The translations under genes were made by a program, and so were the position numbers. From a virus (taxonomy: Duplodnaviria > Heunggongvirae > Uroviricota > Caudoviricetes > Autographiviridae), in the IMG/VR virus record IMGVR_UViG_2778261646_000012: DNA of 5,187 bases. The stretch is one strand, 5' to 3'. Below, piece after piece: positions 2,235-4,841 of this stretch. How positions within the stretch are numbered: position 1 is the first letter of the stretch; every line of letters starts with the position of its first letter. The notes under the pieces were generated by a model. That model was not told where the DNA came from and searched no databases. It worked only from the letters and a program-made list of their open reading frames with translations.

Positions 2235-4841
2235 CTACGGCAGCAATTAGAAGACCCAGATGGAGCGAATAAATACCCAAAACTTCAGATAGCAAGATGG
2301 AGAGACAGTTATGATGTAAGAGGTTGGGGGGCTATTGGTGATGGTGTTCATGATGATACATCAGCTCTATCAGAATTACTTTCTGTTGCAACAGGTGGTG
2401 AAAAGATAGATGGGCGAGGGCTTACTTTTAAAGTATCAACTCTTCCAGATGTCAGTCGATTTAAAAATGCTCGTTTTTTATTTGAGAGAATACCGGGTCA
2501 GCCTCTTTTTTATGCTTCTGAAGATTTTATCCAGGGAGAGTTATTTAAAATTACAGATACACCGTGGTACAACGCCTGGACGCAGGATAAAATGTTTGTA
2601 TATGACAATGTCATCTATGCGCCTTTTATGGCTGGAGACCGCCATGGTGTAAATAACCTCCATGTTGCATGGGTTCGCTCAGGAGATGACGGGAAGACCT
2701 GGACAACGCCGGAATGGCTTACAGATTTACATGAAAACTATCCCACAGTTAACTATCACTGCATGAGTATGGGGGTTGTCAGAAATCGCCTTTTTGCTGT
2801 AATTGAGACGCGGACCGTGAGAGGAAATAAACTGCAGGTTGCAGAGTTGTGGGATCGCCCAATGAGTCGCAGCCTTCGCGTTTATGGTGGTATAACGAAA
2901 GCAGCAAATCAGCAAGTCGCTTATATTCGCATTACTGATCACGGATTATTTGCTGGTGATTTTGTCAACTTCTCAAACTCTGGTGTTACAGATGTTACCG
3001 GGAATATGACGGTGACTACTGTTATTGATAAAAATACCTTTACAGTTACGACGCAAAATACCCAGGATGTGGATCAGAATAACGAGGGTAGATACTGGAG
3101 TTTTGGCACATCATTTCACTCGTCACCATGGAGAAAAACCAGTCTTGGAACTATTCCTTCTTTTGTTGACGGAAGCACTCCTGTTACTGAGATTCACAGT
3201 TTTGCGACGATTAGCGATAACAGTTTTGCTGTTGGCTACCATAATGGTGATATTGGTCCACGCGAGCTTGGGATACTCTATTTCTCTGATGCTTTCGGTT
3301 CTCCTGGTAGCTTTGTTCGCAGACGCATACCTGCAGAATATGAGGCGAATGCATCTGAGCCATGTGTAAAATATTATGATGGCATTCTGTATCTGACGAC
3401 CAGGGGGACATTAAGTACTCAACCCGGTAGTTCATTGCACAGAAGCTCTGATTTAGGTACATCATGGAATTCTCTTCGCTTCCCAAATAATGTTCATCAC
3501 TCAAACCTTCCTTTTGCCAAAGTTGGCGATGAGCTGGTTATTTTTGGCAGTGAGCGCGCATTTGGTGAGTGGGAAGGAGGAGAACCTGATAACCGTTATG
3601 CAGGAAATTATCCAAGAACATTTATGACCAGAGTTAACGTCAATGAGTGGAGTCTGGATAATGTAGAGTGGGTTAATGTTACTGATCAGATTTATCAGGG
3701 CGGAATAGTTAACTCTGCGGTTGGTGTTGGTTCAGTTTGTATCAAAGACAACTGGCTGTACTACATTTTCGGTGGGGAAGATTTTCTAAACCCATGGAGC
3801 ATAGGGGATAACAACAGAAAATATCCTTATGTTCACGATGGTCACCCGGCTGATTTGTATTGTTTCAGGGTGAAAATTAAACAGGAAGAATTTGTTTCAA
3901 GGGATTTTGTCTACGGAGCCACTCCTAACAGAACGCTTCCTACTTTTATGTCGACGTCAGGCGTGAGGACGGTTCCTGTACCCGTTGATTTCACAGATGA
4001 TGTTGCCGTCCAGTCACTGACTGTCCATGCAGGTACATCAGGACAAGTTCGCGCGGAAGTCAAACTTGAGGGTAATTACGCCATTATTGCGAAGAAAGTA
4101 CCGTCTGATGATGTTACCGCTCAGAGATTAATCGTTAGCGGCGGTGAAACAACGTCTTCAGCAGATGGTGCAATGATAACGTTGCATGGTTCCAGAAGCA
4201 GTACTCCACGTCGCGCGGTATATAACGCACTCGAACATCTTTTTGAGAACGGAGATGTTAAACCTTATCTTGATAATGTAAATGCTCTTGGTGGTCCGGG
4301 AAACAGGTTCTCGATAGTTTATCTTGGCTCCAATCCTGTGGTTACCAGTGACGGAACATTAAAGACAGAGCCGGTCTCTCCTGACGAAGCATTGCTGGAT
4401 GCCTGGGGTGACGTCAGGTATATCGCTTATAAATGGCTGAACGCTGTCGCTATAAAGGGGGAAGAAGGGGCGAGGATACATCATGGTGTAATCGCGCAGC
4501 AACTTCGTGATGTTCTTATTTCTCACGGACTCATGGAAGAAGAAAGCACAACATGCCGCTATGCCTTTCTTTGCTATGACGATTATCCCGCAGTATATGA
4601 TGACGTCATTACTGGCCAAAGGGAAATGCCGCTGACTGATAATGACGGGAGCATCATTGTTGATGAGGATGATAATCCAGTGATGGTAATAGAAGACATC
4701 ATTGAGCGCGTTGAAATAACGCCAGCAGGATCTAGATGGGGGGTCAGACCTGATCTCTTATTCTATATCGAGGCAGCATGGCAGCGCAGAGAAATGGATA
4801 AGATAAAAGCTAGGTTAGACTTAATAGAAGGGAAGCACTAA
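1896..4841 (+). CDS. Tailspike protein, endosialidase type (endo-N-acetylneuraminidase-like), 981 aa
   Basis: ATG at 1896 with GGAG (1884..1887) 8 nt upstream. The first ~113 aa ([11 protein letters not shown]...[23 protein letters not shown]...IINAAG...VTVQGHSMA...NVLKYDPDQ) closely match the P22 gp9 head-binding domain. The central region carries two sialidase Asp-boxes, and the C-terminus has a Ser-x4-Lys motif as in self-cleaving tail-fibre chaperone domains. Confidence 0.9.
4350..4838 (+). other. C-terminal intramolecular chaperone / autoproteolytic domain (peptidase S74-like), predicted to be released after Ser818
   Basis: VTSDGTLK at aa 816-823, with Ser818 (nt 4347..4349) and Lys823 (nt 4362..4364) spaced as in the Ser/Lys dyad of phage K1F endosialidase and related tail-fibre proteins. 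The ~160-aa acidic C-terminal domain is of the expected size. Confidence 0.6.

Follow-up and report, generated by a model that had tools for sequence, protein, structure and literature searches.

The only long gene in the 5,187-nucleotide stretch of DNA analyzed here (the window) very probably codes for a capsule-degrading tailspike in precursor form, a siaK1 allele of the kind carried by prophage CUS-3, in which aa 818–981 act as a self-cleaving Peptidase S74 chaperone. The open reading frame specifies 981 aa, ends at the stop codon at 4839–4841, and gives a precursor with a computed mass of 109.5 kDa. Its main parts, from the N-terminus to the C-terminus, are as follows.

1896..4841, plus strand: predicted endosialidase tailspike precursor gene, siaK1 allele (prophage CUS-3); sole long open reading frame, 968/981 identity to ABQ88383
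1896..2234, plus strand: predicted P22-type head-binding domain, aa 1–113, the virion-tail anchor (Pfam PF09008 Head_binding, E 2.3e-66)
2331..4346, plus strand: predicted endosialidase catalytic part and stalk, aa 146–817 (Pfam End_* domains; 1V0E and 3GVL alignments)
4347..4838, plus strand: predicted C-terminal intramolecular chaperone domain (CTD), aa 818–981, 164 aa, 18.65 kDa (PF13884; 3GW6; homologues)

The order of Pfam domains along the whole tailspike is complete and collinear. PDB matches at aa 1–113 are the N-termini of P22/Sf6-type tailspikes. Downstream, End_N_terminal (aa 146–212) is followed by End_beta_propel (aa 213–662, 769.6 bits), with End_beta_barrel nested within it at 324–406, and then by the stalk domain End_tail_spike (aa 663–817), with Peptidase_S74 beginning at the next residue. 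The endosialidase chains of phage K1F (endoNF; 1V0E and 3GVL) align to aa 145/146–817 with E = 0. All five endoNF catalytic residues listed in the K1F mutational-scan paper (H350, R549, E581, R596, and R647) align with identical residues in the tailspike (H250, R456, E488, R503, and R554), and because of this identity the enzyme part looks functional. Judged by these matches, the protein has the architecture of a GH58 endosialidase tailspike, with propeller, barrel, stalk, and catalytic residues all present. An NCBIfam search with the whole protein returned no family match. We also considered an antisense open reading frame at 4359–4619 (86 aa) and rejected it as a gene; it matches no Pfam family, and the coding frame that contains it is strongly conserved.

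The closest named relative is siaK1/endoNK1 of CUS-3, a P22-like E. coli K1 prophage, from E. coli RS218 (ABQ88383), which is likewise 981 aa long and identical at 968 of 981 positions (99%); according to its record, a direct assay is the evidence for its endosialidase activity. CUS-3 shares with the window the gene order ant, tailspike, and neuO with its heptanucleotide tract, although the tract has at least 26 repeats in the window and 19 in CUS-3, and the left flanks differ, that of the window carrying an IS26 end. Five of the 13 amino acid substitutions fall in the chaperone domain (window to CUS-3: A832T, I932M, M966I, D967E, and K968R), whereas aa 781–831, including Asp793, Arg804, Thr817, Ser818, and Lys823, are identical. 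Among complete genomes, the closest to the window is that of the neonatal-meningitis isolate E. coli O7:K1 CE10; a SNP at 705, a 1-bp indel around 3781, the left flank (IS26 in the window), and the repeat number nevertheless distinguish the two, and the window is not from that strain. The 492-bp DNA encoding the chaperone domain is found in 193 of 5426 complete E. coli genomes, in all of them at ≥95% DNA identity, and relatives of the encoded domain turn up in 235 phage records.

The prophage around this gene appears to be decayed. Positions 1–127 of the window are the outer end of IS26, which interrupts the neighboring ClpP-like gene, in CE10 the tailspike gene carries a frameshift annotation, and CUS-3-like prophages decay frequently, with tail and coat pseudogenes (PMC9659370). 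The tailspike protein of this strain may never reach a virion. It is possible, though we consider it the less probable state of affairs, that the gene has survived intact while the prophage around it decays, its product no longer being built into particles, so that processing would have no current role. Set against this, the reading frame is open over all 981 codons and shares 99% identity with the CUS-3 allele, which has enzyme activity, and the remainder of the prophage lies beyond the window. Such a history would in any case bear on the fate of the gene and not on the identity of the domain. Since the gene is intact in a prophage that is otherwise breaking up, one might also imagine that the self-processed endosialidase, or the released 18.7-kDa chaperone trimer, is kept for a host-side role, for example in trimming or remodeling the host's own K1 capsule in concert with the neighboring phase-variable O-acetyltransferase, NeuO; we regard this as a long shot.

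The reading of the gene as a precursor with a self-cleaving chaperone depends on the identity of its last 164 residues. Pfam PF13884 (Peptidase_S74, "chaperone of endosialidase") covers aa 818–878 with profile positions 1–57 of 58, reaching 41.5 bits (cut-off 22; E 1.6e-10) when the whole protein is searched and 45.2 bits (E 1.1e-11) when the domain is searched alone. The structure of the endoNF stalk plus chaperone, 3GW6, aligns to aa 698–979 (E 3.5e-93), and the GA-1 chaperone structure 3GUD was recovered by both sequence and fold searches. With an alignment of six sequences, AlphaFold2 gave a poor monomer model of aa 778–981 (mean pLDDT 58.7, pTM 0.48), which is unsurprising for a domain that forms an intertwined trimer. 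Foldseek with this low-confidence model nevertheless placed 3GW6 first (E 3.7e-10, low TM 0.42), followed by 3GUD. The 3GW6 sequence match outweighs a fold search on a poor model, and we take the latter as weak corroboration. With every expectation that can be checked at the sequence level borne out, aa 818–981 are best assigned to the Peptidase S74 / CIMCD (ICA) domains, family S74 of MEROPS and Pfam.

To examine conservation we used an exhaustive HMMER search with aa 804–981, in which 3287 cluster representatives matched with E ≤ 1e-3. The best 150 of these 3287 were re-aligned to aa 778–981 together with the six proteins returned by a word-indexed protein search with aa 804–981, too few by themselves for conservation statistics. 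The re-aligned homologues are mostly 40–58% identical to the query, and their rows give the counts listed here for the residues of the putative active site.

4272..4274, plus strand: Asp793, putative counterpart of T5 pb1 Asp1239, which positions the sensor arginine (offset −25; Asp in 141/143 rows)
4305..4307, plus strand: Arg804, putative counterpart of T5 pb1 Arg1250, the folding-sensor/oxyanion-hole Arg of the neighboring chain (offset −14; Arg in 143/149 rows)
4344..4349, plus strand: Thr817/Ser818, predicted scissile bond, with Ser818 as nucleophile (endoNF chain ends, K1F/phi92 CTD starts, and conservation, with Thr in 148/152 rows at 817 and Ser in 147/152 rows at 818, otherwise Cys in 4 and Thr in 1)
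4362..4364, plus strand: Lys823, predicted general base, counterpart of endoNF Lys916 (alignments; Lys in 151/152 rows)

Ser818 (AGT, 4347–4349) and Lys823 (AAG, 4362–4364) both lie in the segment T-S-D-G-T-L-K and align column by column with Ser911 and Lys916 of endoNF, the published catalytic Ser-Lys dyad of that enzyme (PMC8326128). In the 3GW6 alignment the residue at endoNF position 911 is Ala (VTANGERK), reflecting a mutant protein, whereas the K1F genome has Ser there. A preliminary description of this DNA, made from its letters, had likened the five-residue Ser-Lys spacing to that of endosialidase-type tailspikes and proposed an endosialidase-type C-terminal chaperone domain. This spacing is indeed that of the endoNF dyad, the numbering of Ser818 and Lys823 and the span 4347–4838, which runs from Ser818 through His981, agree exactly with the translation and codon positions, and the proposed domain gains support from the PF13884 match starting at 818, the endoNF alignment, and the conserved residues.

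The residues around the dyad point in the same direction. In K1F and T5, the mechanism needs an Arg from the neighboring chain, an Asp that positions this Arg, and a Thr preceding the Ser (PMC4690869). Counted from the Ser, Asp793 is at −25, Arg804 at −14, and Thr817 at −1, matching Asp1239, Arg1250, and Thr1263 of pb1 in spacing, and Arg804 is invariant across the alignment of K1F, phi92, and CUS-3. Asn912 and Gly956 are essential in endoNF, where the dyad plus an arginine serves as a folding sensor (PMC3742443); their counterparts in the tailspike are Asp819 (Asp in 147/152 rows) and Gly864 (Gly in 152/153 rows). The tailspike thus differs from endoNF in having Asp for Asn912, but Asp is the family majority, and eukaryotic MYRF, too, has Asp at this position (PMC3742443).

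Four further, more remote proteins from the word-indexed search read T-S-D-x-R-E-K at the dyad site. The tailspike has Thr-Leu at aa 821–822, where the family majority is Arg-Glu (120 and 124 of 152 rows, respectively). Thr821-Leu822 is the only local oddity of the dyad region; phage phi92, whose endosialidase is annotated as processed, has Thr-Leu as well.

We infer that processing occurs between Thr817 and Ser818 from four independent lines: Pfam, structures, GenBank annotation, and the T5 and MYRF papers. First, End_tail_spike ends at 817 and position 1 of the S74 profile falls on 818. Second, the mature endoNF chains in 1V0E, 3GVL, 3GVJ, and 3GVK stop at the residue aligned with Thr817 (...YLGSNPIVT), whereas 3GW6, the structure of an uncleavable construct, runs on past this boundary to query residue 979. 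Third, the GenBank records of K1F and phi92 label the endosialidase "proteolytically matured", and in both the mat_peptide for the CTD starts with the Ser aligned to Ser818. Fourth, T5 pb1 is cut at Thr1263-Ser1264, the Ser departing with the chaperone, and the situation is described as "the same" for K1F (PMC4690869); for MYRF, P577 is the last residue of the expected N-terminal product, immediately before Ser578 (PMC3742443). Together these make cleavage of the tailspike a high-confidence transfer by homology.

Because the Ser leaves with the chaperone in K1F, phi92, and T5 pb1, the predicted mature spike comprises aa 1–817 (90.8 kDa) and the predicted released fragment 164 aa (18.7 kDa). 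The preliminary description had given a mature spike of about 818 aa and a released part of about 163 aa; it had the right site, and its lengths were off by one. When the enzyme is produced as an anti-K1 depolymerase or as a reagent for polysialic acid, the relevant size would be that of the mature tailspike rather than that of the 109.5-kDa frame, a small gain in annotation.

How cleavage might proceed can be modeled on K1F endoNF and T5 pb1. The C-terminal domains of three chains would associate and nucleate folding of the triple-beta-helix stalk (aa 663–817). Only in a correctly folded trimer would Arg804 of the neighboring chain, held by Asp793, complete the oxyanion hole at the Thr817 carbonyl; Lys823 would then activate the Ser818 hydroxyl, and the Thr817–Ser818 bond would be cut in each chain. 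Release of one 164-aa fragment (18.7 kDa) per chain would leave an SDS-stable mature trimer of aa 1–817 (90.8 kDa per chain), whose stalk would be free for polysialic acid binding and which would be fixed to the virion via the P22-type head-binding domain. How the chaperone domain senses folding, and that it acts autonomously, is set out in PMC3742443 and PMC4690869.

A genuine S74 domain could instead fold the trimer and yet be cut inefficiently or not at all, so that the spike would keep a C-terminal cap. The departure of aa 821–822 from the family majority would fit such behavior, and the case for cleavage of this tailspike is one of homology. We nonetheless consider it improbable: every residue that the published mechanism names is there, at unchanged spacing, the phi92 endosialidase (endoN92), annotated as proteolytically matured, has an identical TSDGTLKT segment, and the CUS-3 allele is identical over aa 781–831. 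A literature search, whose reach did not extend to the primary papers on endosialidase processing, found no direct statement on cleavage of CUS-3 endoNK1. Cleavage of endoNK1 was reportedly shown by Stummeyer in 2006.

We rejected the bare S-x4-K motif as evidence, as it occurs four times in the protein (at 262, 409, 487, and 818) against about 2.2 expected from composition, a non-significant excess; the pattern alone being uninformative, the case for site 818 rests on homology. The same recurrence could suggest that Ser818 and Lys823 form a chance match without catalytic meaning, but the alignments refute this, since among the S-x4-K sites only 818 sits on position 1 of the S74 profile, the site aligns with an experimentally defined dyad, and Ser and Lys are kept in about 97% or more of some 150 divergent homologues.

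The self-cleaving chaperone is a known feature that was correctly recognized in this DNA. Work on endosialidases between 2003 and 2010 had already covered the CTD together with its dyad and mechanism, and the named members of that group include CUS-3 siaK1, so that the finding opens no new question. What the window adds is a P22-type spike bearing the folding-sensor protease that is common to K1F, phi92, T5 pb1, and human MYRF.

EndoNF (gp17 of K1F; 1V0E, 3GVL, and 3GW6), on which the S74/CIMCD family was founded, aligns collinearly with the tailspike through its catalytic part, its stalk, and its CTD, the last being 52% identical, with Gly956 corresponding to Gly864. The N-termini differ, the tailspike having a P22-type head-binding domain and endoNF a T7 gp17-type adaptor (PMC5380687). 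Relative to endoNF, the insert in the hairpin region of the tailspike is 8 residues longer, and there is one extra residue at 856–858. Endosialidase 92 (gp143 of phi92) shares the TSDGTLKT segment and the same long hairpin insert in a CTD that is 55% identical, and its annotation describes a precursor from which the CTD is released. Phage phi92 is, however, a myovirus with several spikes, and its gp143 differs from the tailspike in its N-terminal attachment part and in its substrate range (alpha-2,8 and alpha-2,8/2,9).

Beyond the endosialidases, T5 pb1, the neck appendage of GA-1/phi29, the K5 lyase, and MYRF share with the tailspike a Thr/Pro|Ser...Lys dyad with five-residue spacing, and the S74 domains of all four undergo trimerization-dependent self-cleavage (PMC3742443, PMC8326128, PMC4690869). 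For the K5 lyase of phage K1-5 the identity is 32.5%. The upstream passenger domains are unrelated, and most S74 domains outside the endosialidases are without the long beta-hairpin "tentacle" insert that endosialidases carry (PMC3742443).

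The tailspike's enzymatic portion is found in phages with different attachment structures. Over window 2417-4809, DNA identity to the Uetakevirus (epsilon15-like) phage vB_EcoP_ZX5 and to two Phi05 phage records is 99.4-99.5%, and the stretch common to all of these and the window comprises only the catalytic part and the chaperone domain. Judged from these sequences, the enzyme-plus-chaperone cassette has evidently been transferred recently between phage types with unlike virion adaptors.

Features in the window and in the CE10 (L002) and vB_EcoP_ZX5 (L005) loci
Window 1-127: outer end of IS26, with terminal inverted repeat TTTGCAACAGTGCC at 114-127
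Window 306-596 (-), 604-804 (+) and 866-1795 (+): ORFs of the immunity-I-type cluster upstream of the spike
Window 4995-5187: 5' end of neuO, with ATG at 4995 and AAGACTC repeats from 5000
L002 4769-7715: CE10 tailspike gene, annotated as a frameshifted pseudogene
L005 803-3922: vB_EcoP_ZX5 tail fibre (1039 aa), containing the catalytic part and chaperone domain

Within the chaperone domain, the nucleophilic Ser of the Ser818 column is replaced in 5 of the 152 S74 homologue stretches (by Cys in four and Thr in one), and the dyad Lys gives way to Glu in a single stretch of the alignment; going by the aligned residues, these stretches may use alternative nucleophiles or be non-cleaving variants. 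The tailspike gene itself is intact in the window, in contrast to the pseudogene annotation in E. coli CE10, where the gene carries one additional C at window ~3781 (GAAGACTTTTC in CE10, GAAGATTTTC in the window).

Thousands of plasmid-borne IS26 copies match window 1-127 at 100% identity. This IS26 end adjoins and truncates a gene for a ClpP-like protease, complete in CE10; the truncation suggests that the prophage is disrupted. Downstream of the tailspike gene, the AAGACTC tract is the poly-psi phase-variation tract of neuO, whose product is the K1-capsule O-acetyltransferase. At least 26 tandem copies follow the ATG, compared with 19 in CUS-3 and 18 in CE10; the window's number is a lower bound, as the tract continues past the window end, and the ON/OFF frame is therefore not readable.

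The match between the window and CUS-3 begins only at 1463 and runs from there onward. Upstream of the spike, the immunity-I-type cluster consists of an Arc/Mnt-family repressor, a small opposite-strand ORF and an Ant antirepressor gene; the repressor and the small ORF's product share the motif D-I-x-P-L-G-I-R-I-P.
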